A stretch of DNA of 64,000 nucleotides from Lysobacter sp. (GCA_027306995.1 DAHUXS010000018.1:73426-137425), one strand, 5' to 3'; counted from the first letter of the stretch, positions 9,662 through 64,000 are shown. The notes: generated by a model from the letters alone, not told the origin. A program made the numbers and translations.

Positions 9662-9776
9662 CTGGTTTTTCCCCTCAAAGTGGCGCACGCGGGGCGCCAT
9701 CATTCGATGATGCCCCAAATCGATGCCAATGATGTGACAGCCGACCCACTTCAATGGCGCATGCGAGAATCGCCGG

Positions 9777-10640: not shown

Positions 10641-10769
10641 TCCCGCAGGCGTGACCGCTGCCCGGAAATCACGGGGATGAATGGGGTTCCGGTTTGACGG
10701 CGACCGCCAAAGTCCGGTAAATCTCGCAGGATTGCCCACCGGGCGCCTGTTCACCCAAGGAAAAACCGC

Positions 10770-36282: not shown

Positions 36283-37094
36283 AGAACGTTGGAAAAGGCA
36301 TGGCACGGCGCGCGGCGGCGGCTTGGAAATACAGAGGCTTCGTTCGAAGCTCTGTGTTAAATGAATTTCGAGCCCGGTTCGCAAGAAGTCGCTTCGGGAC
36401 GTTATGGATGATCCTGCAACCCTTGGCGCAAGTTGGCGTGATGTCGCTTGTGCTCTCGCAGGTTCTTGGCGCCAAGTTGCCTGGTGTCGGAGGGCGGTAC
36501 AGCTATGCGATTTACCTCATGGCAGGGATGCTTTGCTGGAATCTTTTCTCCGAAGTGGTCATGCGCTGCCTGACGGTATTCATCGATAACGCCGCATTGT
36601 TGAGAAAAATCCAATTTCCTCGCATAACTTTGCCTTTGATCGTGGGTGGATCTGCTGTGCTCAATAACTTGGCGCTGCTGGTTGCCGTATTTGTCTTGCT
36701 TGTTGCATTTGGTGCTCCTTTTGCCTGGTCGATGCTTTGGCTGCCCGTGCTCATGATGATCACGGTTGCTCTATCGCTTGGTGTAGGCTTATTTTTCGGG
36801 GTGTTGAACGTATTCATGCGGGATATTGGTCAAGTTGTGCCAGTGGTGCTGCAATTTCTTATGTGGCTAACTCCTATCATGTACCCCGCCACTATCGTTC
36901 CACCTGCATTGGTGCGATTTCAATCCGCCAGCCCACTAGTGTGCCTGGTAAACGCGTACCACGATGTTCTCCTTTACGGGCGGGGGCCGCAACTTGGTTC
37001 TCTCTTATATGTTCTTGCTGTCGCCTTTTTTGTGCTGGCAATTGCCTTGATCATTTTTCGCCGTGCCTCTTCCGAATTGGTTGACGTCTTGTGA
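36279..37094 (+). CDS. wzm: O-antigen/polysaccharide ABC transporter permease (ABC-2 type)
   Basis: 271 aa, 6 TM. ..RFARSRFGTLWMILQPL.. is an ABC-2 signature. Coupled to wzt by a GTGA overlap. Confidence 0.9.
   Translation: MKNVGKGMARRAAAAWKYRGFVRSSVLNEFRARFARSRFGTLWMILQPLAQVGVMSLVLSQVLGAKLPGVGGRYSYAIYLMAGMLCWNLFSEVVMRCLTVFIDNAALLRKIQFPRITLPLIVGGSAVLNNLALLVAVFVLLVAFGAPFAWSMLWLPVLMMITVALSLGVGLFFGVLNVFMRDIGQVVPVVLQFLMWLTPIMYPATIVPPALVRFQSASPLVCLVNAYHDVLLYGRGPQLGSLLYVLAVAFFVLAIALIIFRRASSELVDVL

Positions 37095-39965: not shown

Positions 39966-39969
<4 letters not shown>
38326..39969 (+). CDS. DUF4214 + long coiled-coil + class I SAM-dependent methyltransferase (putative O-antigen chain-terminating methyltransferase)
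   Basis: N-terminal ..YRCILKRPPDPEGLAHHAAKLRSGE.. (DUF4214-like). About 170 aa of heptad-like helical sequence. C-terminal ..YVEFESKFRG..VLDVACGNGEWL..LQPGGLLILETPNPEN. The start is either the ATG at 38326 or the GTG at 38323. Confidence 0.8.
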
Positions 39970-41833
<1,864 letters not shown>

Positions 41834-41849
41834 TCTGCGGAGCCAATAG

Positions 41850-45631: not shown

Positions 45632-46372
45632 GTGAAAGAAATTCCTAGCTTGGAAAATTCAGTTTCGTTTCTCACATCGCATTGGGGTGTATGTGAGTTA
45701 ATAAGTCGGGCGGAAGAATTTCATCTGCAGTTGATTCACCGGGCGCGAATACTTATGGTCAATCGTTTACTGCCGCCTGCTGCGAGAATCTTGGATCTTG
45801 GAGGGGCCAATGCGCCGTTGTACCATATGGGATATCAGCATCTCTTCCAGGAACTCGTAATGGTTGACCTTCCGAAGGAAGATCGCCATGAGATGTATAA
45901 GGATATCGATATATCGGTTGATGCCCCGGGGCGGGTGAGCATTCATTACAGCGATATGACGCATCTGCCTATGCTTTCTGACGAATCCTTTGATCTGATA
46001 TGGTCAGGTCAATCCATTGAACATGTCGACCTGCACGGGGGGGTTAACATGTGTAAAGAGGCATTTAGATTACTGAAACGGGGGGGGCATTTTTGCTTGG
46101 ATACCCCCAATCGGGAGCTTACAAAAATCCATACCAGTGATTGGCATGGAGGATTTATTCATCCAGAGCATAAGCACGAGTACACCAATAATGAATTGCG
46201 ATTGTTATTGGAGAAGACCGGATTCGGAATTAAGGAAAATATGGGTGTTTGTGAGATGCCCAAAACAGTAGAAACAGGCAAGTTTCATTATACGGACTTT
46301 GTAGTAGGCAATCCGTTGACCAGTAAGCCTGAAAGTGCCTATTGTATTTACTTTGATTGTGTACGCCCTTGA
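45632..46372 (+). CDS. class I SAM-dependent methyltransferase
   Basis: GTG start. ..ARILDLGGANAP.. (motif I), ..FDLIWSGQSIEHV.., ..LLKRGGHFCLDTPN.. Very AT-rich codon usage. Confidence 0.72.
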   Translation: MKEIPSLENSVSFLTSHWGVCELISRAEEFHLQLIHRARILMVNRLLPPAARILDLGGANAPLYHMGYQHLFQELVMVDLPKEDRHEMYKDIDISVDAPGRVSIHYSDMTHLPMLSDESFDLIWSGQSIEHVDLHGGVNMCKEAFRLLKRGGHFCLDTPNRELTKIHTSDWHGGFIHPEHKHEYTNNELRLLLEKTGFGIKENMGVCEMPKTVETGKFHYTDFVVGNPLTSKPESAYCIYFDCVRP

Positions 46373-46481: not shown

Positions 46482-47036
46482 TTAAAGGGGGCCAATCACA
46501 ATAGGGGAGTCTCCAGCATCTGTGTACCAATGCACGCCTTCCTGAACGGCTGCCACTCTGAGCTTGCGCTCTTTCGTTCGCGCATCATTTGCAGGAATGT
46601 TTACATCGACCTCGGCAGTCGCACCCGGTTGAATGAGTGGAAGAGCTGCACGCACGAAATCTACAACTGCTCCGGGGCCAGTAACAGTTCCGTCGTTGCC
46701 GAGGATTTGTACCCCGAGATTTACAGGAAATTTCCCTGCCCCCTTAATCGGCTGCTTGCCGGCGTTCGTAACACTTATCTTCAAGACGCGGAACTTCCCG
46801 TCTGCAGAAGTCTGCAAGTCACCTTGCTGAGCCACTAGTGCCAAATGAAAGTCGGCTGCGGGAATCGCCGCGTTGACACCTTCTGGATCAATCGGTGGTG
46901 TATTTTGCTGCTGCGCTTGTTTTTTTTGTGACGCGTCAGCACCAGTCACGGATGGGGTGTTTGCCTTATCACAAGCGCCAAGTGCCATGCATAGCGTGGC
47001 AACGACGCAGGCAGTAGTAAAATTTGATTGCTTCAT
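46482..47036 (-). CDS. lipoprotein with Ig-like beta-sandwich domain
   Basis: Lipobox ..LCMALGAC|DK. Gln-rich linker. Domain ..FRVLKISVTNAGKQPI..PVNLGVQIL..LPLIQPGATAEVDVNIPA..KLRVAAVQEGVHWY.. Confidence 0.65.
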   Translation of the reverse strand: MKQSNFTTACVVATLCMALGACDKANTPSVTGADASQKKQAQQQNTPPIDPEGVNAAIPAADFHLALVAQQGDLQTSADGKFRVLKISVTNAGKQPIKGAGKFPVNLGVQILGNDGTVTGPGAVVDFVRAALPLIQPGATAEVDVNIPANDARTKERKLRVAAVQEGVHWYTDAGDSPIVIGPL

Positions 47037-47159
47037 GCCGTTGTGCCTCTCCGATACGGTAATGTCAACATAAAAATACGCCCAGGTCCGCTTTGCGACC
47101 TAGGTTCCAGTTTACCTCAAACAGTCGAAGAACAGTGGCTAGTGTAGTTCTGCCCTAGC

Positions 47160-48008
47160 TCAACGGAATGTGAGTTTGGTCAGCCCGATACCAAGTAATC
47201 GGCCATCCGGTGAGATCCCAAGCTGAGAGGGAGACATCGGGTGGTCTAAATTGAAACTAATTTCGATAACTCCGTCACGCTCTTTGAGCTCATTCACGGA
47301 AATTGTTATGACCATATTCGACGGAATATTATTCGGCTTTGCCACGATTGGTGATCGATCATGGCCATTAATGCTAGGGATTATTGTGAGAGCTTCGTGG
47401 CTGCCTGCAAGAAACGCGGTGTAATCAATGTCCACTATTAATGGACCTAATACATCGGGGGCTTTGAATCTGATGTACGCAGTCGATGAAGTTGACCATG
47501 CCCCCCATTTCTCGGGGGTCGCCCAAGTTTCATCCAAAAATTGCTTGAATGAAGGGTTGCTCGAAGGAAGATAGATCTCTCCCCTTGCCGCAATTACCAT
47601 CATTTCATCAATAGCTTGGGGGGACACTAAAAAAGAGGCATGCGGTTCTGACGAGAAGCGCGATGCGAAAAGACTCAACACTTGGCTGGCCGAACTTTCA
47701 GACATGTTGCAAAGACTACGGGAGTATAGGTGGGCTTCTGTCCCTGGCCCCAAGAACATTGCTTTTCTGCAGTGAGGCCCAAGAATAATGGAGGGACGGA
47801 TAATAGGGACTTCTCCCAGGCCAGAATATCGCTCAAAAAAAACCTCTTCTGGGGGATCGTAAATCGATGGGGCCAGCGTATATATGATTTTCGCGGCTGG
47901 CGATGGCTCAGTATAGATTTGTGGCTTGGACGGCCAATATTCGATTGAATTCCAAATTGCGGATACAAGAAAAAGAGCGCTCGCAGAAAAGAGTAAAGTT
48001 TTACTCAT
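47160..48008 (-). CDS. N-terminally membrane-anchored periplasmic protein, partner of the upstream GT-C-like protein
   Basis: MSKTLLFSASALFLVSAIW (one TM), then a soluble domain ending ..PSQLGISPDGRLLGIGLTKLTFR. ATGAGTAA 8-nt overlap with the upstream gene. Confidence 0.6.
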   Translation of the reverse strand: MSKTLLFSASALFLVSAIWNSIEYWPSKPQIYTEPSPAAKIIYTLAPSIYDPPEEVFFERYSGLGEVPIIRPSIILGPHCRKAMFLGPGTEAHLYSRSLCNMSESSASQVLSLFASRFSSEPHASFLVSPQAIDEMMVIAARGEIYLPSSNPSFKQFLDETWATPEKWGAWSTSSTAYIRFKAPDVLGPLIVDIDYTAFLAGSHEALTIIPSINGHDRSPIVAKPNNIPSNMVITISVNELKERDGVIEISFNLDHPMSPSQLGISPDGRLLGIGLTKLTFR

Positions 48009-49116
48009 GACGAGCTCCAAGCGCGCGCTGAATCAAGAGCCGCAGCGGAAAATAGAAGACCGGGATATACCACAACGCATATCTGGACACGTATACGGTA
48101 GCGCCGGAGTTCATGTTCTCACTTGCGCCGTGCGCATATAACGTAGCCCCAAGATATGTAATTACAAGAAGCGCAACTTGAGTGTCGATTTTTTTTAATT
48201 CTTCTTTGTTTTTGAATAGAACGTAAAAAGAGCTAAGCAGAATTAGGATGCCGACCGGCCAATTCGGAAGCAATCCAATGTCAGGATCAAAAATGTAATA
48301 CAGGCCGTTAAAATGGCCCTTAAGATTCGCCCCTCCAGCAAGTAGCTGGGGGGTCAAAACTCCATAACGACTCATATAGTAGATGGGATGCAGCAACACG
48401 ATACCTGCACTAGCTACGAGGCATATTAACTCCAGCAGAGATATGGTGCGCGCCTTGCATGATGCAAACAAGGCAAAAACCCAGCATGCTCCCGCCGGCA
48501 GCGCAAAACTGATGTTCTGGGTGCTGACAATGCTCAACAATAACGCGGCTAAAGACCATTTTTTCTGGGTGGCAGCTGCAACCGCGCTAATTGTGAGCGT
48601 AACGGTCCACCATTCCGTATGCACCTTATTGATAAACCAAAAAGTGGGCGAGAACGCGACGAGAACAAATGCAGTGATCAATCCTGATTTGCCATGCAAC
48701 TTCCAGCAGGCTGCCAACATGAAGCTTAGCAAAGCTGAATGGAGTAGGAGAAATGCTGCATGAATATGCCCTGGAAAGGCCAGTTCAAAAACGGAAGCAG
48801 CAAGAGGGTATGCCCAGAAATGATTGAAGTCGGCTGTGTTGCCTCGTCGTAACGCAGGGAACTTATTTCTTAATTGTTCTTCGGGCTCCAGTCCAGAAAC
48901 TGAGTTGCTGCTTACGAAATCGCCGTAAGAGGCCCAAGAGTCAGCATTCATATAAGGCTTGTGGGTTTTTGCCCACGCAATTTCCATTGCATAGTATTCA
49001 GAGCCATCACCGACGTTGACAGCTCTGAAGTGATGCGCACAGGCATACGTAAGCATGAATGCCGAAAGCACCAATATGGCAAACTTAGACGGGGGGAAAA
49101 ATCGCATGGCTTTCAT
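48001..49116 (-). CDS. polytopic membrane protein, GT-C-fold glycosyltransferase-like
   Basis: 371 aa, about 10 TM. The first loop carries ..VGDGSEYYAMEIAWAKTH.., which resembles the ArnT/PMT DExRYAEIARE-type loop. It sits in a GtrA/GT2 context. Confidence 0.55.
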   Translation of the reverse strand: MKAMRFFPPSKFAILVLSAFMLTYACAHHFRAVNVGDGSEYYAMEIAWAKTHKPYMNADSWASYGDFVSSNSVSGLEPEEQLRNKFPALRRGNTADFNHFWAYPLAASVFELAFPGHIHAAFLLLHSALLSFMLAACWKLHGKSGLITAFVLVAFSPTFWFINKVHTEWWTVTLTISAVAAATQKKWSLAALLLSIVSTQNISFALPAGACWVFALFASCKARTISLLELICLVASAGIVLLHPIYYMSRYGVLTPQLLAGGANLKGHFNGLYYIFDPDIGLLPNWPVGILILLSSFYVLFKNKEELKKIDTQVALLVITYLGATLYAHGASENMNSGATVYVSRYALWYIPVFYFPLRLLIQRALGARHE

Positions 49117-50441
49117 GCGTGACTCAGAATGCGCCCCAATTTTCGACCTTCTTTAACAGCATAATTGGTTCCTCGATCCTCCGGATAGACTTGAGCCATG
49201 CTCGTCAGGAAGACGTTCGGTAGAGGTGTCGAATTGCCAGGAACCAAGGTGGAATAGTGGCGCTCAGCAATGGGTTGTGCAAATTCTGCTTTCCACACAT
49301 GGGCATCCAGTATCCAGGACTTCTCAAAATCGGGGAACATCTTTTTCAGATGGGGTAATGAGAAATCAATGAGTTCCTGGTCGCTCATTTGATACATCTG
49401 GTGATCTGTAGGGAGGTATTTGGATAAATAAACAATGTGCCGTCCTCCGTAGGAGCTCGGCGGCTCGAAGTTGGTATGCTCGATCACCCCGACATATGGA
49501 AATCCGGGATCATTTACGTTAAGCCAATATGTGTCCGACAAGCTTCTGTCGAGGGATAAAACCAGGCAGACATTAGCGAGATACCGAATGCGTCGAAGCC
49601 TATCTAGGAACTCTGATGGAGCAACTTGTTGCAACAAATTGGCTGAAATGGGGAATGCAGTCGACAGGACTACGTTGTCTGCCTCAATGATCTCGCCATT
49701 CGCCAGTAGAATGCCTGTTGCCAGGCCATTTTCAGCCGCAACAGAAGACGCCGTGCTAGAAAGCAAGATAGTTCCACCCTGATTCCGAATCGCCTCGGCA
49801 AGACGCTCAGCTAAAGCTGCGAAACCACCTTTGTAGTACGCAAGGACCTCATCACCGGAACTGCTCCTGCTGCCGCCGCGGAGGACAAGTTTTTTCCAGA
49901 ACCAAACAGCGGAAACATCGTCTGCCACTGTCCCGAACTTTCCAACCAAAAGGGGGTCCCAGACAACGTCATATGCGCGTTGGCCACAAAGCTTTATCAG
50001 CCACTCTTTGGCGGTCAGTCCTTCCAGCTTCTTCCAGTCCTTGACTCTTCGGGCACGGAGCACAGCTAGCCCAAGGCGAATTCTGTCGACCATGGGGAGC
50101 GCTGAAAAGCGAAGCAAATCTAGGGGGGTGCTTAGCCGAAAAAACTGATTGGCATAGTACATTCCTGTTCGAGTTGGTCGGAGCAGAACGTTATCTTTGA
50201 CTCCAAGCTCTTCAATTATCTCCATGATCGCAACATCATTGTTGAACCAGTGGTGATAGAACTTTTCCAAGGTCTCGTCTTCGACCTTGAAGCCGCCTGC
50301 GAGTCCTCCAACCTCAGAATCGGCTTCGACAAGCGCAACAGATTTTCCCGCAAGTGTTAATTCATATGCGACAGCAAGCCCGGCAAAGCCACCGCCAACG
50401 ATAACTGTATGAAATTTACTTGCAATTGAATTGACTGGCAT
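49113..50441 (-). CDS. FAD/NAD(P)-binding oxidoreductase (amine-oxidase / phytoene-desaturase / HemY-like fold)
   Basis: N-terminal dinucleotide motif ..VIVGGGFAGLAVAYELTLAGKSVALVEADSEVGGLAG.. 442 aa. ATGA overlap with the GT-C-like gene. Confidence 0.85.
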   Translation of the reverse strand: MPVNSIASKFHTVIVGGGFAGLAVAYELTLAGKSVALVEADSEVGGLAGGFKVEDETLEKFYHHWFNNDVAIMEIIEELGVKDNVLLRPTRTGMYYANQFFRLSTPLDLLRFSALPMVDRIRLGLAVLRARRVKDWKKLEGLTAKEWLIKLCGQRAYDVVWDPLLVGKFGTVADDVSAVWFWKKLVLRGGSRSSSGDEVLAYYKGGFAALAERLAEAIRNQGGTILLSSTASSVAAENGLATGILLANGEIIEADNVVLSTAFPISANLLQQVAPSEFLDRLRRIRYLANVCLVLSLDRSLSDTYWLNVNDPGFPYVGVIEHTNFEPPSSYGGRHIVYLSKYLPTDHQMYQMSDQELIDFSLPHLKKMFPDFEKSWILDAHVWKAEFAQPIAERHYSTLVPGNSTPLPNVFLTSMAQVYPEDRGTNYAVKEGRKLGRILSHA

Positions 50442-50443
50442 GT

Positions 50444-50857
50444 TTACACCCGGGGAGCATGAGGCCGGAAGGTTATGGCCTTATTGATGGAAAATTGGAG
50501 AATTAAAACGAAGACAAGAGTGGCAAGCTTGGCTGCTATGGGGTGAATAGAGAAAATGCCAACGAGCACCCATAGTAGTGCGCTCGACAACAAATAGCCT
50601 AGTAGCGCAGTAGCGAGGAACAGCCCGAGTCGCTGGAGGGTGCGGTCGTAGGTCTTGAAAGTAAAATGCCTGTTTAATAAGAAGCTGACCAATGTACCCG
50701 ACGCGTAGCTTGCGAAGTTGGCAGGCTGATAGCCGATGCTTCGTTCAACAAGAAGTGAATAAATGGTCAAATCGATCAAGACACCAGTGCCGCCGCAAAC
50801 GGCGTACATGATGAATTGTTGAAGTTGCGCCCGGTTAGATAGAAGTTTTCGAATCAT
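50444..50857 (-). CDS. GtrA-family membrane protein (lipid-linked sugar translocation-associated)
   Basis: 4 TM. ..QFIMYAVCGGTGVLIDLTIYSLLV.. and ..FSINKAITFR are GtrA-like. The start is uncertain (50857 or 50917). Confidence 0.8.
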   Translation of the reverse strand: MIRKLLSNRAQLQQFIMYAVCGGTGVLIDLTIYSLLVERSIGYQPANFASYASGTLVSFLLNRHFTFKTYDRTLQRLGLFLATALLGYLLSSALLWVLVGIFSIHPIAAKLATLVFVLILQFSINKAITFRPHAPRV

Positions 50858-51821
50858 TCGAGGGGTTATTCGTATTGATTGTTGATGCAACGATAGTTTG
50901 CTGGCGCCCATTGACATGCAGCAATACTCGCCCGAGATATTCGCCGATGATCCCGATCGAAAGTAACTGAATTCCCCCTAGTATCATTGTGGAAACCATC
51001 AGTGACGACCAACCTACGGGCATGGCGTTTATCGTGAATCTTTGGATGATAAAGGCGATTGCTGCCAGAAAACCCAACCCAGAAAATGCAAGGCCGATTA
51101 GAGAGGCTATTCTAAGTGGGGCGACAGAAAAGCCCGTCGCCATTTTCAACCACAGGGAGATTGATTTTCGAAGACCGTAGCCAGATCGACCATCAGCGCG
51201 CTCATGATGATCAATTTTGACCGTCGCGATCTTGTTTGTTGTATTCAAGATCAGGCCGTCTAGGTAGACGTTCGGTCCCTCGAAGTGAATCAATTCATCT
51301 CTGACCCCCTTACAAATAGCTTTGAAAGGCGATAGATAAAGCCCCTTCGGCTTGCCGAGTAGTATCCCCGCAATTAAGTCGTTGAACTTGCTACCTATGC
51401 GTTTCCATAGCGCGTGCTGCTTGGAATGGAACTCTCCGTAGCTCACATCGTAGCCCTTCGACAGGGGCGCTAACAAAGCAGCGATGTCATCAGGGGAGTG
51501 TTGTAGATCATCATCCATCATGACGATCCTTTGCCCGGAACAGTATCTGAGACCGCACAGGATTGCATTGTGTTGCCCTGCGTTTTTTCTCAAATCGATG
51601 GCTTTCAACCAGGAATAGGATTTTGCAAGCTCTGCGAGCACTGCCCATGAGTTGTCGGGACTGCAGTCGTTGACCATGACGACTTCAAATTGGCCGTCAT
51701 GTAGTTTGGACAGTACGGCTTCAAGTCGTTTGACAAGCGCAGGAAGTATCGTTTGACTGCGATAAACAGGAATGACTACTGAAATTTCAGGCTTCACCGT
51801 ATTGCCCGTAGTATCTGTCAA
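50835..51821 (-). CDS. GT2 polyprenyl-phosphate glycosyltransferase (GtrB/ArnC/DPM1-like)
   Basis: ..ISVVIPVYRS.., ..VVMVNDCSPDNS.., ..IVMMDDDLQHSPDDI.., plus two C-terminal TM helices. The start is uncertain (TTG at 51821 or GTG at 51797). Confidence 0.88.
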   Translation of the reverse strand: MTDTTGNTVKPEISVVIPVYRSQTILPALVKRLEAVLSKLHDGQFEVVMVNDCSPDNSWAVLAELAKSYSWLKAIDLRKNAGQHNAILCGLRYCSGQRIVMMDDDLQHSPDDIAALLAPLSKGYDVSYGEFHSKQHALWKRIGSKFNDLIAGILLGKPKGLYLSPFKAICKGVRDELIHFEGPNVYLDGLILNTTNKIATVKIDHHERADGRSGYGLRKSISLWLKMATGFSVAPLRIASLIGLAFSGLGFLAAIAFIIQRFTINAMPVGWSSLMVSTMILGGIQLLSIGIIGEYLGRVLLHVNGRQQTIVASTINTNNPSNDSKTSI

Positions 51822-52610: not shown

Positions 52611-53555
52611 TTATGCAAGGTTGGACTCAATCTCGGGTAAAAGAACAAACAAATCTCCCACCAGCCCCACATCCGCGATCTCGAAGATCGGCGCGTCGCC
52701 GTCCTTGTTGATCGCGACAATCGTTCCGGCGTCCTTGATGCCGGTCAGGTGCTGGATGGCGCCTGAGATGCCGATAGCGATGTAAAGTTCCGGTGCGATG
52801 ATCTTGCCAGTCTGGCCAACCTGCAGTTCGTTTGGAACGTAGCCGGCGTCGACCGCGGCACGCGAGGCGCCGACCGCAGCGCCGAGCTTGTCGGCAAGGT
52901 CGTAGACGATCTTGAAGTTTTCGGCGCTGCCGACCCCGCGACCACCAGAGACCACACGTTTGGCGCTCTGCAGGTCGGGGCGGTCGGACTTGCCGGCGGC
53001 CAGTTCGACGAAGCGGGTGTGTGTCGGCAAGGTGGCGCTCACACTCGCCGCTTCGACCGTCGCGCTGCCACCCTTGGCGGCTTCCGGCCACGAGGCGGTG
53101 CGCACGGTGGCGACCACGACGTGGTTGGTCGGCGCTTCGACGGTCACGATGGCGTTGCCGGCATACATCGGGCGCTTGAAGGTATGCGTGCCCTCGACGG
53201 CCATCAGGTCGGAGACTTGACCGACGTCGAGTAGGGCGGCGACGGCGGGCATCACGTCCTTGCCGAAGGTGGTGCTCGGGCCGAACACATGGCTGTAGCC
53301 GCTCTTCGCGACTTCGGCGATCTGTGGCGCCAGCACTTGGGCGATGGCGTGGGCGTTCGTAGCATTGGCTACGGTCAGTACCTTGCTGACGCCGGCGATC
53401 TGCGCGACTTCGGCGGCGACGGCGTCCGGTGCATCGGACAGCACCAGCACGTCGATTGCGTCCGGTTTCAGTGCCTGGGCGGCCGACACGGTCTTGGCGG
53501 TAGCAGTATTGAGCTTGCCGTTCAGGTGTTCAGCAATAACGAGAACCTTGGACAT
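52611..53555 (-). CDS. etfA: electron transfer flavoprotein alpha subunit
   Basis: Start at the ATG at 53555 ([15 protein letters not shown]..). ..[11 protein letters not shown].. and ..[26 protein letters not shown].. are canonical. 314 aa. Confidence 0.95.
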
Positions 53556-54301
53556 TACAGCAACCCCTTCTGCTTGAGTACGGCGATCAATTCGGCCGCA
53601 TCCTTGACCATCACCCCGCGCTGGCGCTGGGCCGGAGGTGCGTACCGGGTGGCCTTTGGCGCGTCGGCAGCGGCAATGGCGAGATCGGCCAGCTGGAGGG
53701 TTTCCAGCGGCTTGCTCTTGGCCTTCATGATGTCCGGCAGCTTGATGAAGCGCGGCTCGTTGAGGCGCAGGTCGGTGGTAACCACGGCCGGGAGGTCGAC
53801 TTCCAGCGTTTCCAGGCCGGCATCGACCTCGCGGGTCACGGTGGCCTTGCCGCCGTCGACCACCAGCTTGCTGGCGAAGGTCGCCTGCGGACGGCCCCAC
53901 AGGGTGGCCAGCATCTGGCCAGTCTGGCTGGAGTCGTCGTCGATCGCCTGCTTGCCCATCAGGACCAGGTCGGGCTGCTCCTTCTCGATCAGCTTGAGGA
54001 AGGCGCGGGGGGCGGCCAGCGGGGGCACAGCCTCGTCGGCGACCACGTGGATGGCGCGGTTGGCGCCCATGGCCAGGCCATTGCGCAGGTGGGGTTGGGC
54101 GTCGGCCGGGGCGATCGTGGCGACCACGACCTCGGTGGCCTTGCCGGCATCGCGCAGGCGCAGGGCCTCTTCCAGCGCGATGTCGTCGAAGGGGTTGGCG
54201 GACAGCTTGACGCCGTCGGTGACGACGCCGCTGCCATCGGGCTTGACCTGCACGCGGACGTTGGCGTCCACCACGCGCTTGTAACCGACCAGGATCTTCA
54301 T
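53555..54301 (-). CDS. etfB: electron transfer flavoprotein beta subunit
   Basis: MKILVGYKRVVDANVRVQVK..NPFDDIALEEALRL.. is canonical. Its stop codon overlaps the etfA ATG by 1 nt. Confidence 0.95.
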   Translation of the reverse strand: MKILVGYKRVVDANVRVQVKPDGSGVVTDGVKLSANPFDDIALEEALRLRDAGKATEVVVATIAPADAQPHLRNGLAMGANRAIHVVADEAVPPLAAPRAFLKLIEKEQPDLVLMGKQAIDDDSSQTGQMLATLWGRPQATFASKLVVDGGKATVTREVDAGLETLEVDLPAVVTTDLRLNEPRFIKLPDIMKAKSKPLETLQLADLAIAAADAPKATRYAPPAQRQRGVMVKDAAELIAVLKQKGLL

Positions 54302-54334
54302 TGAGCAAGGACCTATGGAACGTAGCCCGCCATT

Positions 54335-57925: not shown

Positions 57926-57935
57926 GACCCATTCG

Positions 57936-58988
57936 ATGACTACTTGGCTTGTCACCGGCGGTGCCGGTTTTATTGGCGGTAATTTCGTGCTCGGAGCCGT
58001 ACGGGATGGCGTGAAGATCGTCAATCTCGACGCTCTGACCTATGCTGGCAATCGCGATACCCTGACGTCGCTGGAGGGCAACTCCAACCATGTCTTCATC
58101 CATGGCGATATCGGTGATCGCGAGCTGGTGTCCATGCTGTTGGCTGAGCATCGCCCGGATGCGGTAGTGAATTTCGCTGCAGAAAGTCACGTCGATCGCT
58201 CGATCGATGGTCCAGCGGCATTCGTCCAGACCAATGTCGTCGGTACGCTCGGCTTGCTGGAGTCGGTGCGCGACTATTGGAAGTCGCTGGAAGGCGCTGT
58301 GCGCGACGATTTCCGCTTCCACCATGTCTCGACCGATGAGGTTTATGGCGCGCTGGGCGAAACCGGCCTGTTTACCGAGGAGACCCCATATGCCCCGAAC
58401 TCGCCCTATTCGGCATCGAAGGCAGCGTCCGATCATCTGGTGCGCGCGTTTCACCACACGTATGGGTTGCCAGTATCGACGACGAATTGTTCGAACAATT
58501 ACGGACCGTACCACTTCCCGGAAAAACTCATTCCACTAGTCATCGCCAAGGCGCTGGCCGGTGAAGCGTTGCCGATCTATGGCGATGGCAAACAGGTGCG
58601 CGACTGGCTGTATGTTGGTGACCACTGTGTCGCGATCCGCAACGTGATTGCCAAAGGCAAAGTCGGTGAAACCTACAATGTCGGCGGCAATGCCGAGAGG
58701 CAGAACATTGAGGTGGTGAAGACGATTTGCGCATTGCTGGACCAGCGCAAGCCGAAGGCCGATGGCTCGAAGTACGAAACGCAGATCACCTACGTACAGG
58801 ATCGTCCGGGCCACGATCGCCGCTATGCCATCGATGCATCGAAGTTGAAGCGCGAACTTGGTTGGGAACCTGCTCACACCTTCGAACAGGGCATCGCCGA
58901 CACGGTCGACTGGTATCTCGCCAACCAGCCGTGGGTGAACCGCGTGCTTGACGGCAGCTATCGCTTGGAACGTATCGGGCAGGGCTGA
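57936..58988 (+). CDS. rfbB: dTDP-glucose 4,6-dehydratase
   Basis: ATG at 57936. [14 protein letters not shown].., ..HVSTDEVYG.., ..[14 protein letters not shown].. Confidence 0.96.
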
Positions 58989-58997
58989 GGAGACGAC

Positions 58998-59882
58998 ATG
59001 CAACGCAAGGGCATCATCCTCGCCGGCGGTTCCGGCACGCGCCTGTATCCGATCACGCAGGCGATCAGCAAGCAGCTGTTGCCGGTGTACGACAAGCCGA
59101 TGATCTACTACCCGTTGAGCGTGCTGATGCTGGCGGGCATCCGCGAGGTACTTGTCATCAACACGCCGCACGAACAGGCACTGTTCAAGGTGCTGCTAGG
59201 CGATGGTTCGCAATGGGGCATGAGGCTGGAATATGCCGCGCAGCCGAGTCCGGATGGGCTGGCGCAGGCTTTCACTATTGGTCGTGACTTTCTTGCGGGC
59301 GCACCGAGTTGCCTCGTGTTGGGGGACAACATCTTTCATGGTCCTGGCCTTACCGCGATGCTCAAGCGGGCCGATGCACGCGAGCAAGGAGCAACGGTAT
59401 TCGGTTACTGGGTGAGAGACCCGGAGCGCTATGGCGTCGCCGAGTTCGATGGCGAAGGTAAGGTGATCGGGCTAGAAGAAAAGCCGATGAAGCCGCGTTC
59501 GAATTACGCGGTGACGGGACTGTATTTCTACGATGGGCGTGCGCCGGAATTTGCCGCCACGTTGAAGCCATCTCCGCGCGGTGAATTGGAGATTACCGAT
59601 CTCAACAAGCGCTACCTTGATGAAGAGTCATTGCATTTGGAACGACTAGGCCGCGGTTATGCTTGGCTGGATACGGGGACACACGGTTCTATGCTGGAGG
59701 CAGCTAACTACATCGAGACGATCGAGGCCCGCCAAGGGCTGCGTGTGGCCTGCCCGGAAGAGATCGCCTACAACAATGACTGGATCGATCGCGATCAGTT
59801 GTTTGCGCTGGCCAAGCCATTGGCCAAAAATGGATACGGTCAATATCTGATGGCGCTGCCAGAACGGGGCTACGTGCCATGA
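58998..59882 (+). CDS. rfbA: glucose-1-phosphate thymidylyltransferase
   Basis: ..[35 protein letters not shown].. is canonical. Confidence 0.96.
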
Positions 59883-60436
59883 AGGTGATTGAAACCGATC
59901 TGCCGGATTGCCTGGTATTCGAGCCGCGCGTGTTCGGTGACGATCGTGGGTACTTCTACGAATCGTTCAATGCCGACAAGCTCGCGCCGCTGGGGCTCGA
60001 CCTGCAGTGGAGGCAGGGCAATGTGTCGTCGTCGGCGAAAAATGTATTGCGTGGTCTTCATTATCAGTGGCCAAAGCCGCAAGGAAAACTGGTGTCCGTA
60101 GTCGAAGGCGAGGTGTGGGATGTTGCAGTGGACATCCGACGTGGTTCGCGGACATTCGGTAAATGGGTTGCCGCCATGTTGAGCGCAGACAATAAGCGCC
60201 ACATATGGATCCCACCGGGATTCGCTCATGGCTTCGCGGTGTTGAGCGAACGAGCAGTGTTTTCCTATCTTTGCACCGAAACCTACGATGCAGCTGCAGA
60301 TGCCAATATCCGCTGGGATGATCCCGAACTGGCGATTGACTGGCCGATCAGTGATCCATCGCTGTCGCCCAAGGACGCCGCTGCGCCATTGTTGAAGAAC
60401 GTCGCTGCTGACCGCCTGCCGATGTATCAGGCCTGA
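59879..60436 (+). CDS. rfbC: dTDP-4-dehydrorhamnose 3,5-epimerase
   Basis: ..[13 protein letters not shown].., ..LRGLHYQ.., ..[19 protein letters not shown].. Confidence 0.95.
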
Positions 60437-60441
60437 GCGCA

Positions 60442-61344
60442 ATGCGCATTCTGTTAGCTGGCGGTAATGGACAGGTCGGGCATGAGCTGCGTCGCAGTCT
60501 CGCGCCCTTAGGTGAGGTCGTCATCACCACGCGCAATGGCGAGCTGGGGGGCGGATCGGTACTTGCCTGCGATCTGATGCAGCCGGGAGCGTTGGCTGCG
60601 ATCCTTCGCGAAACGCAACCGGACATTGTCGTCAATGCGGCAGCCTATACCGCAGTCGACAAGGCCGAAAGCGATCGTGATGCGGCATTCCGCGTTAATG
60701 CCGGCGCCGTGGAAGAATTGGCAAGGGAATGCGCTTCCCGCGGTATTACACTGATCCATTATTCGACCGACTATGTGTTCGACGGGCAGGGCAAGCATCC
60801 ATATCTGCCGGGCGATGCGACATCGCCGCTTGGCGTCTACGGCGAAAGCAAGCTGGCTGGCGAAGACGCAATCCGCGCATCTGGCACGAAACACCTGATC
60901 TTGCGCACGGCCTGGGTATACGGCCTGCACGGCCACAACTTTCTTAAGACCATACTGCGTGTTGGCGGCGAACGTGACGAGTTACGCGTAGTGTCCGACC
61001 AGATCGGTTCGCCGACGCCGGCGTGGTTGATCGCTGATGTCACTGCGCAAATCCTGCGGCAGGGCGTTGGCGTAGGGGGGGTTCAGCATCTCGTCGCTGC
61101 AGGCCAGACCAGCTGGCATGGATTCGCCAAGGCTATCTTTGACGAAGCGGTTGCCATTGGAAGGCTGGAACGCAAGCCGATTACCCATGCTATCCCGAGC
61201 AGTGAATACCGGACGCCTGCGCGACGTCCGTCGTGGTCGGTGCTGGATTCGTCCAGTTTGGAAAAGAGTTATGGAATCAAGCTGCCTGACTGGAGATTAG
61301 CCTTGGCGCAGACATTTCGGATGTTGGGTCAACATGATGAGTGA
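60442..61344 (+). CDS. rfbD: dTDP-4-dehydrorhamnose reductase
   Basis: MRILLAGGNGQVG.., ..VVNAAAYTAVDKAE.., ..HYSTDYVFDG.., ..YGESKLAGE.. Confidence 0.93.
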   Translation: MRILLAGGNGQVGHELRRSLAPLGEVVITTRNGELGGGSVLACDLMQPGALAAILRETQPDIVVNAAAYTAVDKAESDRDAAFRVNAGAVEELARECASRGITLIHYSTDYVFDGQGKHPYLPGDATSPLGVYGESKLAGEDAIRASGTKHLILRTAWVYGLHGHNFLKTILRVGGERDELRVVSDQIGSPTPAWLIADVTAQILRQGVGVGGVQHLVAAGQTSWHGFAKAIFDEAVAIGRLERKPITHAIPSSEYRTPARRPSWSVLDSSSLEKSYGIKLPDWRLALAQTFRMLGQHDE

Positions 61345-63099
61345 TTAGGCGATCTCGACATCGATCAAACAACCGGACGCAGCATTTTTTTCTATGAACC
61401 ATGCCACGTCTTCTTGGACCAAGGAGATTGCAAGCCGATAAGTTCCAGGCTCATCAGGAGCACGAACGAGCAGGGGTGCAATTACCGAGTTTCCTCCGGC
61501 AACATCGTCTGGGAGTATGCTGCGTAATCCGTCCGGAACGATTAGATCTCCTTCCTGCGAGTACCAGCGATATGTCAGGCATACGGGACGGCAATATCCG
61601 CTGGCAGACCAGGCTTCCAGACCAGAGTTTTTTACGCGTAGCTGCAGGAATGAGTCTGTTGCAGCCGGGAGCGCATGTTTTGGTGAAAGCAATTGTATCG
61701 ATGCGTCAAATTGGCTCAGCGGTGGATTCATTCGTCCAAACGAGCGAACACCGGCTTGCTCTACATGAACCCGATCGATTCGTGGCTCTGGACTGTCATC
61801 GATCGAAGACAAAGCAAAATCAGGATCCAGCATGAAGCGACCTTCGAAGTAATTCGTTACAAGGTCATAGATCTCGAAACGAGCCGCGTCTTCGAACCAA
61901 TGGTAACAACCATCGTGGTGGGAAAGATCCTTGATCAGAGAGACATCAATGCAATATTGGCCGCGGCCTAAGCGATTAAGCATTGAAAAATTAGCGACGT
62001 ATCGCCCAGGCTCCAGCTCTATCGCGTCGCCCAGCAACCTGGAGTTGGTGCCAAAGAGCAGGGCGCCCCGCTCATCGCGGATTCCGATGCCCACAGTGAC
62101 ATTCTCGATCACCTCATGCGCGGCTATTTCCATTTCGATCAGTATGGGTTCGCCGCACAACATTTCTGGTGCACCTGTAACGCTTCCTTTTGCGATAACT
62201 CGAGTTACCTCGCATCGCTTGTCCCCGAAATTCCTTGGCTTCCGTCCTTGCTTGATTGATGTTATCCGTCGATCGACCGGTTTCACAGCTGTCTGAATGT
62301 TGTCCGCTGTGCGATGTTCTTTTGCGATGGAGGGGTTGCTAGTGCTGCTCGTGATATGGCGCCGACGATCTCGCCGGAATCGATCGCGCGCATATTCGTA
62401 CAGCTCTATTTCTGGAGCGAGCACCGTTTCAATCAACTTCTGCTGCGCAGTGTTTAGATCGCTGACGGAAATTCGTTTCCAGGTTTGATTTGCCCAGGGC
62501 AGGGTCTTTTGAGGCCATTCCATTTCGGCGGCCAACATACAGGTTGCATCATCGAGGTCTTCCTGGATTCCAATGAGGTCAAATCTGTCGATTGCTTTCT
62601 TGGCCGCAGCCAGCTTCTCGGAAACTCCTAAATTGCAATCGGTTTCCTTCGCGCCGATTGGGTACAGCATTGAGAGCTGAAGCGCGACGGCGTCTTGGCG
62701 TTCGTGCTGAATCTTCGAGATATAAGAATCAAGGTCAGCGAGTCGTAGCCGGGCATCGCGAGGTTGATCAGGGCTTTGATGCTTCCCGTAAAACAGATCG
62801 GAAAGGAATCTGTCTACGGGGTCGCGCAAAAACGTCATGGCGTAATAATCAGATGGAATCTCATCGCCTTGATGAAACACTACATGCCCGCTCAGGACTT
62901 GCTTGTGGTCCCATTGGAGTAGTGCGTCAGAAAATCGGATTCCGCCGAGCAACGGTGTAATTTGCGACTCCCCGGCTTGGGCAATCAGGTATTCGCGAAT
63001 CGCTGTTCCACCAGTCTTAGGGATATGAAAGTGGAAGATTTTTCTGGAGCCGGGCACATCAAACCCGATAAATGTTTCGTGTCGCGATTCTTTCATCAT
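61345..63099 (-). CDS. three-domain cytoplasmic protein: PAPS-type sulfotransferase + Wzt_C-like glycan-binding domain + Ig-like domain
   Basis: Start at the ATG at 63099 (MMKESRHETF..). 5'-PSB loop FHFHIPKTGGTA and 3'-PB ..FLRDPVDRFLSDLFY.. The middle domain ..TVGIGIRDERGALLFGTN..GRGQYCIDVSL..YHWFEDAARFEI.. aligns by eye to the Wzt C-terminus encoded at 37853-38323. The region is AT-rich (61381-61440 is 43% GC by hand count). Confidence 0.8.
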   Translation of the reverse strand: MMKESRHETFIGFDVPGSRKIFHFHIPKTGGTAIREYLIAQAGESQITPLLGGIRFSDALLQWDHKQVLSGHVVFHQGDEIPSDYYAMTFLRDPVDRFLSDLFYGKHQSPDQPRDARLRLADLDSYISKIQHERQDAVALQLSMLYPIGAKETDCNLGVSEKLAAAKKAIDRFDLIGIQEDLDDATCMLAAEMEWPQKTLPWANQTWKRISVSDLNTAQQKLIETVLAPEIELYEYARDRFRRDRRRHITSSTSNPSIAKEHRTADNIQTAVKPVDRRITSIKQGRKPRNFGDKRCEVTRVIAKGSVTGAPEMLCGEPILIEMEIAAHEVIENVTVGIGIRDERGALLFGTNSRLLGDAIELEPGRYVANFSMLNRLGRGQYCIDVSLIKDLSHHDGCYHWFEDAARFEIYDLVTNYFEGRFMLDPDFALSSIDDSPEPRIDRVHVEQAGVRSFGRMNPPLSQFDASIQLLSPKHALPAATDSFLQLRVKNSGLEAWSASGYCRPVCLTYRWYSQEGDLIVPDGLRSILPDDVAGGNSVIAPLLVRAPDEPGTYRLAISLVQEDVAWFIEKNAASGCLIDVEIA

Positions 63100-63173
63100 C
63101 CTTTCATAATATTGTAATGATGGAAGTTGGTTGTTAAATCTCAGTGGGAAAAATCGATGGCTTGGCGTAACGT

Positions 63174-64000
63174 ATGAACTGTCATTTGGTTGACATCGAA
63201 TCCAACAGCATCCGCATCCTGCGCGAGGTTGCGGCCTGTTTCCGCAACCCGGTGCTGCTGTACTCGATCGGCAAGGACAGTTCCGTCCTGATGCACCTGA
63301 TGCGCAAGGCATTCTGGCCCGCACGTGCGCCGATTCCGTTGCTGCACGTCGATACCGGCTGGAAATTCGCCGAGATGATCGCCTTCCGCGATCGTCGCGT
63401 GGTCGAGGAGGGCATGACCCTGCATGTGCACATGAATCCCGATGGCATTGCCCAAGGTGTTGGACCGATCAGTCATGGCGCGACGATCCACACCGACGTG
63501 ATGAAGACGCAAGGGCTCCGTCAAGCGCTTGAAAAATTCGGCTTCGATGCCGCGATCGGTGGCGCGCGCCGCGACGAGGAGAAATCGCGTGCCAAGGAAC
63601 GGGTGTTCTCGTTTCGCAACGCGCAGCATCGTTGGGATCCACGCCAGCAGAGGCCCGAGTTGTGGCATTTGTGGAACACACGGCTCGGCTCCGGCGAGAG
63701 CGTACGGGTGTTTCCGCTCTCGGACTGGACCGAGCTCGACGTCTGGGAATACATCGCGCACGAAGGCATCGAAGTGCCTTCGTTGTACTTCACAAAAGAA
63801 CGTTCCGTGGTCGAGCGCGATGGTGCGCTGATCATGGTCGCCGACGCACGGCTACCGCTTGCGCCCGGAGAAATACCGGCGATGCGCAAGGTCCGCTTCC
63901 GCACGCTGGGTTGCTACCCGCTGACCGGTGCGATCGAATCCGATGCCGAGACGCTGGACGAGGTCATCGCGGAATTGCGCGCGTCACGCCTGTCAGAGCG
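63174..64000 (+). CDS. cysD: sulfate adenylyltransferase subunit 2 (3'-truncated by window edge)
   Basis: Not in the ORF track because it has no stop in the window. ATG at 63174. ..[59 protein letters not shown].. is canonical CysD. Confidence 0.93.

Follow-up and report, generated by a model that had tools for sequence, protein, structure and literature searches.

The 64,000-nt stretch of DNA analysed here (the window; Lysobacter sp., GCA_027306995.1, DAHUXS010000018.1:73426-137425) encodes a 584-aa protein in which an N-terminal domain, confirmed by its sequence as a carbohydrate sulfotransferase of the HS2ST type, its PAPS motifs and catalytic His being intact, is followed by a carbohydrate-binding domain (CBD) of the Wzt_C type and by an Ig-like domain. 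This fusion of domains suggests sulfation of a surface polysaccharide just ahead of its export. We consider it rather probable that the protein is a soluble, PAPS-dependent cytoplasmic sulfotransferase acting on the und-PP-linked O-polysaccharide of the Wzm/Wzt pathway before export, targeted by its own CBD and adding the sulfate as a decoration.

The fusion gene and its locus

A 28-kb LPS locus that includes wzm/wzt, gmd/rmd and rmlBADC ends with this gene. The features of this region are the following:

36279-38326, plus strand: wzm and wzt (Pfam ABC2_membrane; ABC_tran and Wzt_C, 116 bits); the Wzt CBD is residues 259-395
38323-45572, plus strand: putative terminal methyltransferase (DUF4214 and methyltransferase), rmd and gmd (GDP-D-rhamnose) and a 1240-aa triple-GT4 polymerase (Pfam)
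57933-61344, plus strand: rmlB-rmlA-rmlC-rmlD for dTDP-L-rhamnose, converging on the fusion gene (S. silvestris counterparts 76-95% identical; Pfam annotation of locus L080)
61345-63099, minus strand: fusion gene, sulfotransferase-CBD-Ig, 584 aa (ORF list and translation; stop codon 61345-61347)
63100-63173, no strand: divergent AT-rich spacer between the fusion gene and cysD (74 nt, 37.8% GC)
63174-64000, plus strand: cysD (sulfate adenylyltransferase subunit 2), cut by the end of the window (Pfam PAPS_reduct, E 3e-51; synteny with locus L080)

The first-pass annotation placed this gene at 61345-63176. The first boundary stands, while 63176 belongs to the ATG of the divergent cysD (63174-63176) and the ORF reaches only to 63099. 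The 584-aa product, the 74 nt that separate its start from cysD (63100-63173) and the contact between the stop codons of the fusion gene and rmlD (there named rfbD) were all borne out, the TGA of rmlD (61342-61344) touching the TTA (reverse TAA) at 61345-61347 with no spacer. The start codon is the first of two adjacent ATGs, and an NCBI entry of 583 aa (P0001) is identical to the window protein. It was also rightly noticed that the gene is AT-richer than its neighbours: its GC content is 51.5% (GC3 52.6%, and 43.3% at 61381-61440, where 43% had been given), versus 60.5% for the window, 56.5-58.9% for rmlB/A/C/D and 61.1% for cysD. A scan for promoters and terminators between 61000 and 63500 gave nothing above chance, and this includes the single sigma-70-like site of the fusion/cysD spacer (63137-63108, minus strand).

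The description of the gene as a single-gene insertion holds in part. The nearest relatives have no fusion gene between rmlD and cysD, but in the closest one xanB occupies that slot, and therefore the region has been rearranged and is not simply the site of an insertion. The orthologue from Solilutibacter silvestris has 72% identity to the fusion protein (95% for RmlA), and its dN (0.197), similar to that of rmlD (0.168), counts in favour of an active enzyme; the dS of the fusion gene is saturated. In S. silvestris cysD is followed by cysNC, the latter with an APS kinase domain.

The genes wzm and wzt are 23 kb distant from the fusion gene, which is adjoined by the L-rhamnose genes. Among the Pfam-annotated ORFs (about 31-64 kb of the window) there is a single ABC-type glycan cluster, and capsule export genes were not found. 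The DUF4214-methyltransferase gave no match to WbdD in a PDB search, and because of this it is called only a putative terminal methyltransferase. As had been claimed, the fusion protein has no signal peptide; it has no transmembrane segment either (maximum Kyte-Doolittle 19-residue window, 1.08), and for these reasons it is predicted to be cytoplasmic.

Domain architecture

The AF2 model of the fusion protein (pLDDT 82.7), the family alignments and the profile searches divide it into four parts, all of them on the minus strand:

62335-63042, minus strand: sulfotransferase domain, residues about 20-255 (5'-PSB PKTGGT 27-32, catalytic His72, 3'-PB RDPVDRFLS 92-100)
62230-62334, minus strand: flexible linker, residues about 256-290 (AF2 pLDDT below 50 at 259-284; unconserved in the homologue alignment)
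61825-62229, minus strand: Wzt_C-type CBD, residues about 291-425 (N352, H394, C398-Y-H-W401)
61348-61824, minus strand: C-terminal segment, Ig-like beta-sandwich, residues about 426-584 (confident AF2 beta strands; related to NBR1 FW / N_BRCA1_IG)

The sulfotransferase domain

Both domains that had been recognised by eye exceed their gathering scores in HMM searches, the N-terminal one matching Sulfotransfer_2 (PF03567) with 29.5 bits (gathering score 22). The family profile retrieves HS2ST (E 1.8e-14) and HS6ST (E 2e-7), and in Foldseek the sulfotransferase domain of the model matches HS6ST (5t03). The families that match (Sulfotransfer_2, Gal-3-O-sulfotransferase, HS2ST and HS6ST) are all carbohydrate sulfotransferases; Sulfotransfer_1 and Sulfotransfer_3 gave no Pfam match at E <= 1 in the fusion protein, and a fold search against viral structures returned generic sulfotransferase and Ig folds only.

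The PAPS motifs named by the first-pass annotation were located at residues 27-32 (PKTGGT) and 92-100 (RDPVDRFLS), and they are invariant or nearly invariant across 29 homologues, in which this is true of H25, P27, T29, G31, G71, H72, R92, P94, R97 and S100. The invariant G71-H72 pair aligns to the H-G-H of HS2ST and RDPVDRFLS to its RDPIERLVS; His72 is presumably the catalytic base, the role of its counterpart in HS2ST. The possibility of a pseudo-enzyme was rejected, the catalytic motifs being invariant.

The domain belongs to the family of HS2ST/HS6ST (Sulfotransfer_2; PDB 3F5F, 4NDZ, 5T03), has their fold and aligns with them at the 5'-PSB, at the 3'-PB and at the catalytic His. However, identity is only about 16%, and those proteins are type II membrane enzymes of the eukaryotic Golgi that act on glycosaminoglycans and carry no appended binding domains. 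In bacteria, LpsS from Sinorhizobium meliloti is a PAPS-dependent enzyme reported to sulfate LPS. So far as is known, it is a single-domain protein without a Wzt-type CBD.

The carbohydrate-binding domain

The middle domain is a genuine Wzt_C CBD by family and by fold. Residues 315-420 match Wzt_C (PF14524) with 72.5 bits (gathering score 30.4; E 4.5e-20), and the family profile matches the Wzt from A. aeolicus with E 9e-31. The AF2 middle domain superposes in Foldseek on 8dky_A, the Aquifex Wzt CBD with bound 3-O-methyl-mannose, with an rmsd of 1.3 Å over 127 columns (TM 0.84, E 3e-11, 30% identity), in accordance with what had been expected from the sequence; the model of the fusion CBD also matches 5hno and 2r5o (jelly-roll beta-sandwich). 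The block-for-block resemblance to the C-terminal domain of the window's own Wzt (37091-38326), previously seen by eye, was recovered by BLASTP (28% identity over 94 aa, E 5e-6) in a match that spans the named blocks. The Pfam family and the jelly-roll are thus held in common with the Wzt CBDs from A. aeolicus (6O14/8DKY), K. pneumoniae O12 (5HNO) and E. coli O9a (2R5O). Unlike Wzt, the fusion CBD is not joined to an ABC ATPase (ABC_tran gave no Pfam match in the fusion protein, whose N-terminus is the sulfotransferase) and is placed between the sulfotransferase and the Ig domain.

The residues that contact the cap in the A. aeolicus CBD include L300, N313, T346, A348, H350, H355, W362 and V380 (PMC9445017). 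Among the fusion CBDs, N313 is kept in 53 of 59 sequences, W362 in 48/59 and H355 in 40/59, with A or S at position 348 in 52/59. The window CBD has, as Wzt CBDs do, the CYHW motif and the three residues (Asn, His and Trp) in contact with the capped terminal sugar, here N352, H394 and W401. Position 348 is S in this CBD, while 300 is G, 346 is D, 350 is I and 380 is E. The subgroup to which it belongs differs from the Wzt CBDs at the same positions (L300 to G/A, T346 to D, H350 to I/V/L, V380 to E), and these changes in the methyl pocket imply that either the ligand of the CBD differs from that of the resident Wzt or the binding mode does. The resident Wzt CBD keeps N313, A348, H350, H355, W362 and V380 and has S for T346; it differs at 299, 300 and 353.

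The fusion CBDs form a clade of their own, apart from the co-resident Wzt CBDs, to which they have 18-29% identity. A recent duplication of the resident Wzt CBD was considered and rejected given 18-28% identity and this separate clade.

The C-terminal domain

The third domain is probably a divergent NBR1/FW-type Ig domain. The Ig-like fold that had been assigned to it is seen in the AF2 model as confident beta strands, and the domain has conserved Trp residues, a likeness to NBR1 FW / N_BRCA1_IG (PF16158; ILRUN 6VHI). The Pfam match of the window copy is weak and below the gathering score (15.0-18.6 bits versus 28, E 0.037), in contrast with multi-repeat relatives of 34-38% identity, which reach 82-133 bits; PF16158 is weakly matched by 13 of 30 relatives. 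Sequence searches of the PDB with this domain were marginal (E 0.1-0.9; ILRUN 6vhi, E 0.1). An FW-type Ig module is also found appended to a SAM methyltransferase (P0055).

Family and genomic neighbourhoods

The sulfotransferase-CBD architecture is a real family. Of the 150 best-scoring clusters at 50% identity, about 100 match over the full length, and the architecture is found in 54 non-redundant genomic loci spread over several phyla, their sources being Xanthomonadales, Betaproteobacteria, Methylobacter, Competibacter, Treponemataceae, Syntrophobacteraceae and Bacillota. The survey of neighbours called for in the initial proposal showed that wzm/wzt, gmd/rmd and PAPS-synthesis genes recur beside the fusion gene. 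Within 10 kb, wzm or wzt occurs in 27 of the 54 loci, gmd in 16, rmd in 14 and multi-GT4 genes in 18, and 21/54 have none of the reference glycan genes (at least one short-form locus, L081, is without any glycan genes). In Dyella, Rhodanobacter and other loci the fusion gene is flanked by the same set as in the window (methyltransferase, rmd, gmd and GT4); in Dyella, Rhodanobacter and L082 it lies inside the wzm/wzt-gmd/rmd cluster. Another member (L037) belongs to an ABC cluster of the capsule type, in which a KpsS/C-like Capsule_synth gene and an OPX gene are also present, and therefore the family is not confined to O-antigens.

PAPS genes are within 10 kb in nine of the 54 relatives' loci, as well as in the window, in several different arrangements: i) cysD/cysNC in the window, L001, L002, L007, L010, L029 and L082, ii) a stand-alone APS kinase, which in L037 and L042 directly adjoins the fusion gene and in L031 is near it. 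Besides, one homologue (P0046) is an APS kinase-sulfotransferase-CBD tri-fusion. Direct adjacency to cysD is a property of this lineage only (the window and S. silvestris). A binding protein, permease and ATPase beside cysNC in L029 were considered as a sulfate importer and set aside; PF12849 fits a phosphate importer too.

In seven loci (L010, L029, L030, L037, L041, L059 and L082) the ATPase paired with the fusion gene lacks a CBD (238-263 aa), and the fusion gene is the sole CBD-bearing ORF within 10 kb. One homologue (P0039) has in addition long coiled-coil repeats and a basic tail, an extension that we take to be reminiscent of the molecular ruler of WbdD.

Proposed function

In the mechanism that we favour, the CBD of the enzyme would dock on the sugar at the non-reducing end of the completed chain, which in this genome is most likely a D-rhamnose-rich polymer with a methylated terminal sugar. 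The catalytic domain, on its disordered tether of about 35 residues, would then move sulfate from PAPS, supplied by the divergent cysD-cysNC, to hydroxyls near the terminus, and the outcome would be completed chains with a sulfated decoration and not a new chain-stopping cap. The earlier proposal that the Wzt_C-like module binds the nascent O-antigen and that the enzyme sulfates it is thus supported at the sequence level by the Pfam matches, the superposition and the neighbours. It had left two options for the sulfate, cap or decoration, of which the latter is the likelier in this genome because the putative terminal methyltransferase adjoins wzt and the resident Wzt CBD keeps most of the methyl-cap contacts.

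WbdD from E. coli O9a/O8, a terminator with kinase and/or methyltransferase activity, is not known to have a CBD. The proposed enzyme would resemble it as a cytoplasmic modifier of the non-reducing end region of a lipid-linked polymer, as is established for WbdD (PMC9445017). Unlike WbdD, the window protein has a predicted chemistry of sulfate transfer from PAPS, and it has neither a coiled-coil ruler nor a membrane-binding tail nor a kinase/methyltransferase domain; it ends right after the Ig domain, the coiled-coil tail being found only in P0039. Sulfated LPS in this or any related organism was not reported in the literature searched, and in Aeromonas salmonicida an ORF with a sulfotransferase domain lies beside wzt, yet no sulfate was found in the O-antigen (PMC4483657).

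The sulfate might instead be a chain-terminating cap that licenses export, the fusion protein being the terminator and its CBD reading the terminus in trans, so as to replace or supplement the CBD of Wzt. The seven loci with a CBD-less ATPase would fit this idea, as would the repeats and tail of P0039 if, as we presume, they are ruler-like. Besides, a separate CBD has been reported to restore in vivo transport to a CBD-truncated WzmWzt (PMC9445017). However, the window Wzt has its own CBD with most of the Aquifex cap contacts beside a putative terminal methyltransferase, methyltransferases of the FkbM or DUF4214 type are also present at CBD-less loci (L010, L082 and L029), and the Asp at pocket position 346 in the window subgroup is unfavourable for the reading of a sulfate. 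CBD-less Wzt/KpsT systems are not known to need a cap. A sulfate cap is regarded as unlikely. A different acceptor (capsule, exopolysaccharide, LPS core or another cytoplasmically assembled glycoconjugate) is likewise given a low probability. It would suit the capsule-type cluster of L037, the members from Gram-positive bacteria without an O-antigen (Desulfosporosinus and Bacillota; L031, L042), the locus from Rudaea, where the fusion gene is accompanied only by a methyltransferase and a GT2 gene, and the window itself, where the gene is 23 kb from wzm/wzt and beside the L-rhamnose genes; against it are the single ABC-type cluster without capsule export genes in the annotated part of the window and the position of the gene within the wzm/wzt-gmd/rmd cluster in Dyella, Rhodanobacter and L082.

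Another reading of the CBD is that it no longer binds sugar and instead mediates dimerisation or docking, for instance by strand-swap with the Wzt CBD, placing the enzyme at the transporter. Wzt CBDs do dimerise via exchange of a C-terminal strand (PMC9445017); the equivalent segment, FEGRFMLD, is conserved in the fusion CBDs (G420 invariant) and poorly modelled in the monomer (pLDDT below 50 at 416-421), and several pocket positions are unlike those of Wzt CBDs. Nevertheless, the equivalents of N313, H355 and W362 are the best-conserved residues of the domain, the low identity and separate clade described above do not favour pairing with co-resident Wzt CBDs, and in seven loci there is no such partner, all of which makes this role improbable. 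In Xanthomonadales the cysD/cysNC homologues raxP/raxQ supply PAPS for the tyrosine sulfation of RaxX, and the position of the fusion gene divergent from cysD could recall a sulfotransferase that acts on a peptide (tyrosine) or a small molecule, as does Xanthomonas RaxST on the former, the adjacency to PAPS genes being by chance. That is very improbable, as only carbohydrate sulfotransferase families match, the enzyme is fused to a CBD and glycan genes are the conserved neighbours of the family.

Implications

No paper describing a sulfotransferase-Wzt_C fusion enzyme was found in the literature searched, in agreement with the first-pass annotation; the architecture as such is already present in NCBI, as 'Wzt carbohydrate-binding domain-containing protein', and in UniRef, as 'Sulfotransferase family'. 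Wzt-type CBDs are treated in the literature searched solely as a part of the exporter that checks chain capping. A reader module on a modifying enzyme would be a general way to steer late tailoring onto completed lipid-linked chains. On the preferred reading, that of a CBD-targeted decoration, soil Xanthomonadales (Solilutibacter, Dyella, Rhodanobacter, Dokdonella), methanotrophs and others should have sulfated O-antigens or capsules; for these groups no report of sulfation was found in the literature searched. The sulfate would alter the charge of the surface, its metal binding and its recognition by phages and antibodies. The family is a source of candidate compact, soluble, self-targeting bacterial polysaccharide sulfotransferases, of possible use in glyco-engineering.

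A broader view, to which we give little credence, is that these proteins form a new class of 'finishing' factors for O-antigens or capsules, terminal sulfation stopping growth and/or licensing export and the CBD acting in trans as cap reader for CBD-less transporters. If true, sulfate would join methyl, phospho-methyl and Kdo as a fourth kind of chain cap, and this would be the first case of cap recognition shifted from the transporter to a modifying enzyme. The loci with CBD-less transporters offer a direct genetic test of such delegated cap reading.

The fusion gene and its locus

The sulfotransferase fused to a Wzt_C carbohydrate-binding domain (CBD) and a C-terminal Ig-like domain, proposed in the first-pass annotation, is real and had been read correctly. 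It is an uncharacterised, fairly widespread architecture, in which a known type of enzyme and a known reader domain form a new combination.

61345-63099, reverse strand, fusion gene (ORF, 584 aa)

The identical NCBI protein (P0001) starts at the second of two adjacent ATGs. The interval first assigned to the gene ran to 63176, which is the end of the ATG of divergent cysD (63174-63176) and lies beyond the fusion ORF (63099). The 74-nt spacer between both genes is confirmed (37.8% GC), as is the zero spacer to rmlD, whose TGA (61342-61344) abuts the reverse-strand TAA (61345-61347). The protein indeed has no signal peptide, and a membrane segment is likewise absent (maximum 19-residue Kyte-Doolittle mean 1.08). 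The gene is also AT-richer than its neighbours, as had been noticed: its GC content is 51.5% (GC3 52.6%), against 56.5-58.9% in rmlBADC, 61.1% in cysD and 60.5% in the window, and falls within the range of the O-antigen genes at 35-46 kb (45-57%).

A 28-kb LPS super-locus of the Xanthomonadales type ends with the fusion gene (Pfam assignments):

Forward strand: GT gene, wzm, wzt (with CBD), DUF4214-methyltransferase, rmd, gmd, 1240-aa triple GT4, second methyltransferase
Reverse-strand block: three ORFs without Pfam match, amine oxidase, GtrA, GT2, epimerase, ETF-domain ORF, aldose 1-epimerase
52611-54308, within the reverse-strand block: ORF with ETF domains (etfA-type)
End of the locus: xanB, xanA, rmlBADC, then the fusion gene, then cysD

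The presence of gmd and rmd points to a polymer derived from GDP-D-rhamnose. For the Wzt CBD of Aquifex aeolicus, the residues in contact with 3-O-methyl-mannose or -rhamnose have been defined (PMC9445017), and the resident Wzt CBD shares most of them: N313, A348, H350, H355, W362 and V380 are kept, with S for T346, and positions 299, 300 and 353 differ (Y, M, E). A methyl group is therefore the most likely O-antigen cap in the source organism. Within the region, GC is lowest (45.1%, GC3 46.2%) in the second methyltransferase gene (45632-46372), with which the O-antigen operon ends.

The gene had also been described as a single-gene AT-rich insertion. In Solilutibacter silvestris the arrangement is that of the window (cysNC-cysD / fusion / rmlDCAB-xanA-xanB-etf). 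The genome with the closest RmlD (81%) shows etfAB / rmlBACD-xanB-cysD-cysNC-CoA-transferase and lacks the fusion gene, and in the synteny comparison the slot lacks both the fusion gene and cysDNC in two more relatives. Thus the gene is accessory and compositionally foreign, but the slot has been rearranged, with xanB occupying it in the RmlD-closest relative, and this is not a clean one-gene insertion. In this lineage the cysD-cysNC pair, too, is an accessory block bordering the LPS locus, a hint that PAPS synthesis is built into LPS precursor operons. The site was compared in L085, L086, L087 and the window (63174-64000), two other relatives being without the block there; in L085, the locus of the closest relative, cysD-cysNC (with APS kinase, 8361-11062) follows rmlBACD-xanB after a 2-nt gap (8359-8360), and the fusion gene is absent.

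Domain architecture

Both HMM searches proposed at first gave matches above the Pfam cut-offs: Sulfotransfer_2 (29.5 bits, cut-off 22) and Wzt_C at residues 315-420 (72.5 bits, cut-off 30.4, E 4.5e-20). The AlphaFold2 model, built from 29 homologues (mean pLDDT 82.7), contains:

Residues 20-255, alpha/beta domain
Residues 259-284, disordered linker between the first two folded parts
Residues 295-415, beta sandwich (middle domain)
Residues 427-584, second beta sandwich

The N-terminal domain model matches heparan sulfate 6-O-sulfotransferase (Foldseek). The PAPS-binding motifs recognised by eye show little or no variation across the 29 aligned homologues; RDPVDRFLS aligns with RDPIERLVS of HS2ST, and the invariant G71-H72 with its H-G-H, which includes the catalytic histidine of that enzyme. 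The middle domain superposes, as expected, on the A. aeolicus Wzt CBD co-crystallised with 3-O-methyl-D-mannose (8dky; rmsd 1.3 A over 127 columns, TM 0.84, 30% identity), and BLASTP against the resident Wzt recovers exactly the blocks originally aligned (28% identity over 94 residues, E 5e-6). The family profile matches A. aeolicus Wzt (E 9e-31), HS2ST (1.8e-14), the K. pneumoniae O12 CBD (1e-8) and HS6ST (2e-7).

The terminal Ig-like domain corresponds to the second beta sandwich and is probably a divergent NBR1 'FW'-type Ig domain. Its N_BRCA1_IG match is weak and below threshold; PF16158 is matched in 13 of 30 relatives, and scores up to 133 bits in multi-repeat relatives (34-38% identical).

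Phylogeny and pocket of the carbohydrate-binding domain

A neighbour-joining tree of 84 fusion and Wzt CBDs groups the fusion CBDs, except for three divergent ones, in a single clade distinct from the Wzt CBDs found at their own loci; fusion and co-resident Wzt CBDs share only 18-29% identity. A recent copy of the local Wzt is thereby ruled out and, from these sequence comparisons, the fusion is therefore judged to be old.

Across 59 fusion CBDs, conservation is highest at the positions equivalent to the Aquifex ligand contacts (N313 in 53, A or S at 348 in 52, W362 in 48, H355 in 40, H350 in 28). The positions lining the methyl pocket differ systematically from Wzt: position 300 has A, G, S, H or E where Wzt has L or M, and position 346 has D or G in place of S or T. 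The window's subgroup carries I, V or L at 350 and E at 380. We read this as sugar binding probably kept with a different fine specificity.

Distribution, gene neighbourhoods and PAPS supply

A word-indexed search gave 54 fusion relatives, and an exhaustive search of 1.84 billion representatives gave 188 proteins at E <= 1e-30; among the best 150, about 100 align over the full length of the query. Databases name these proteins automatically 'Wzt carbohydrate-binding domain-containing protein' or 'Sulfotransferase family'. A genome scan found 54 non-redundant loci with sulfotransferase and CBD; hosts are Dyella, Rhodanobacter, Dokdonella, Rudaea, Casimicrobiaceae, Methylobacter, Competibacter, Actimicrobium, Rhizomicrobium, Treponemataceae, Syntrophobacteraceae, Desulfosporosinus and other Bacillota.

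How often the fusion neighbours LPS or cysDN genes, a question already raised, was surveyed within 10 kb. LPS-type genes accompany it in at least 33 of the 54 loci (wzm or wzt in at least 27, gmd 16, rmd 14, multi-GT4 18), these counts being minimum figures because several contigs are short and the probes were the window's own proteins only. In Dyella japonica the gene lies between xanA-rmd-gmd-GT4x3-methyltransferase-wzt and a GtrA/GT2 block, and in Rhizomicrobium a shorter form without Ig domain follows wzm-wzt-wzt. In a Dokdonella-like contig (L084) it comes after metB on the border of the LPS locus; about 8 kb away (1-1819) there are two more sulfotransferases (Sulfotransfer_1/3, one with TPR repeats), adjoining DUF4214 and methyltransferase genes. 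In L030 (7907-13741), wzm and a wzt without CBD are followed immediately by three tandem fusion paralogues (560, 569 and 565 aa), whose CBD pocket residues are strongly diverged and include no Trp at 362.

Genes cysD and cysNC (with APS kinase domain) occur within 10 kb in the window and six other loci (L001, L002, L007, L010, L029, L082). A stand-alone APS kinase ORF overlaps the fusion gene 3' end in Actimicrobium (L037); in L042, a Bacillota MAG, such an ORF stands before the gene, and in Desulfosporosinus (L031) one is close by. The metagenomic protein P0046 is a tri-fusion of APS kinase with sulfotransferase and CBD. Linkage in several independent forms supports real use of PAPS by the fusion enzymes. 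In the Treponemataceae MAG (L029, 1-5504), cysNC and a PBP_like_2/permease/ATPase importer, for which Pfam does not distinguish sulfate from phosphate, stand directly upstream of gmd-rmd-wzm-wzt-fusion-FkbM methyltransferase.

Proposed function and alternatives

The protein is very probably an active carbohydrate sulfotransferase. Its acceptor is likely to be an ABC-pathway polysaccharide, and binding of the CBD to the terminus of this polysaccharide is favoured somewhat beyond even chances. At the cytoplasmic face, the CBD would bind the non-reducing end of the finished, lipid-linked chain, the catalytic domain tethered to it would sulfate nearby hydroxyls with PAPS from cysDNC, and the sulfated chain would then be exported via Wzm/Wzt. 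Limiting sulfation to finished chains may keep sulfate from interfering with the polymerising glycosyltransferases.

Alternatively, sulfate could itself be the chain cap, the terminus being read in trans by the CBD of the fusion enzyme. Related to this, P0039 carries behind its Ig domain a repeated coiled-coil stretch of about 100 residues and a basic tail, which resemble the WbdD ruler. In seven loci (L010, L029, L030, L037, L041, L059, L082) the fusion gene accompanies a CBD-less Wzt/KpsT-like ATPase (238-263 aa) and no other ORF within 10 kb bears a CBD; a CBD expressed as a separate protein is reported to complement truncated Wzt (PMC9445017). The methyl-cap machinery of the window, however, makes this reading unlikely, and the pocket Asp would argue against the window's fusion CBD reading a sulfate group. 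It is equally improbable that another glycan is the acceptor, for which the capsule-type ABC cluster of L037 speaks, and a mere docking or dimerisation role of the CBD is less probable still. Sulfation of a peptide or small molecule is disfavoured because only carbohydrate sulfotransferase families are matched.

Full-text literature searches found no paper on a sulfotransferase-Wzt_C fusion or on a sulfated D-rhamnan O-antigen. The nearest published case, a 216-aa sulfotransferase-domain ORF adjoining wzt, is from Aeromonas salmonicida, where no sulfate was found in the O-antigen (PMC4483657). The fusion architecture gives a clear and testable prediction, sulfated ABC-pathway polysaccharides.

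Associated modules

The FW/N_BRCA1_IG-like module (61348-61824 in the window) also occurs outside the fusion (P0055; L064, L068, L069, L075; P0074, P0080): appended to the SAM methyltransferase P0055, in small ORFs with lipoprotein-like N-termini, and repeated 4-12 times in tandem in proteins 800-1800 aa long, one of them with a Peptidase_M6 domain. P0108 (332 aa) and P0183 (337 aa) contain Wzt_C and Ig/FW only, lacking sulfotransferase and ABC ATPase, and may be free-standing CBD proteins or truncated gene calls. The Actimicrobium sp. CCI2.3 cluster (L037, 301-17882) holds KpsS/C-like Capsule_synth, Poly_export OPX, several GT4, a 1288-aa DUF4214 protein and the gene row gmd-fusion-APS kinase-rmd. 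The GtrA and GT2 block (window 46482-51821, reverse strand; L079 5365-9834; L082 11861-16420) recurs directly beside the fusion gene and looks like a Gtr-type periplasmic glycosylation module; it includes large unannotated ORFs (687-694 and 443-446 aa in Dyella and L082) and, in the window, an amine oxidase-like flavoprotein.
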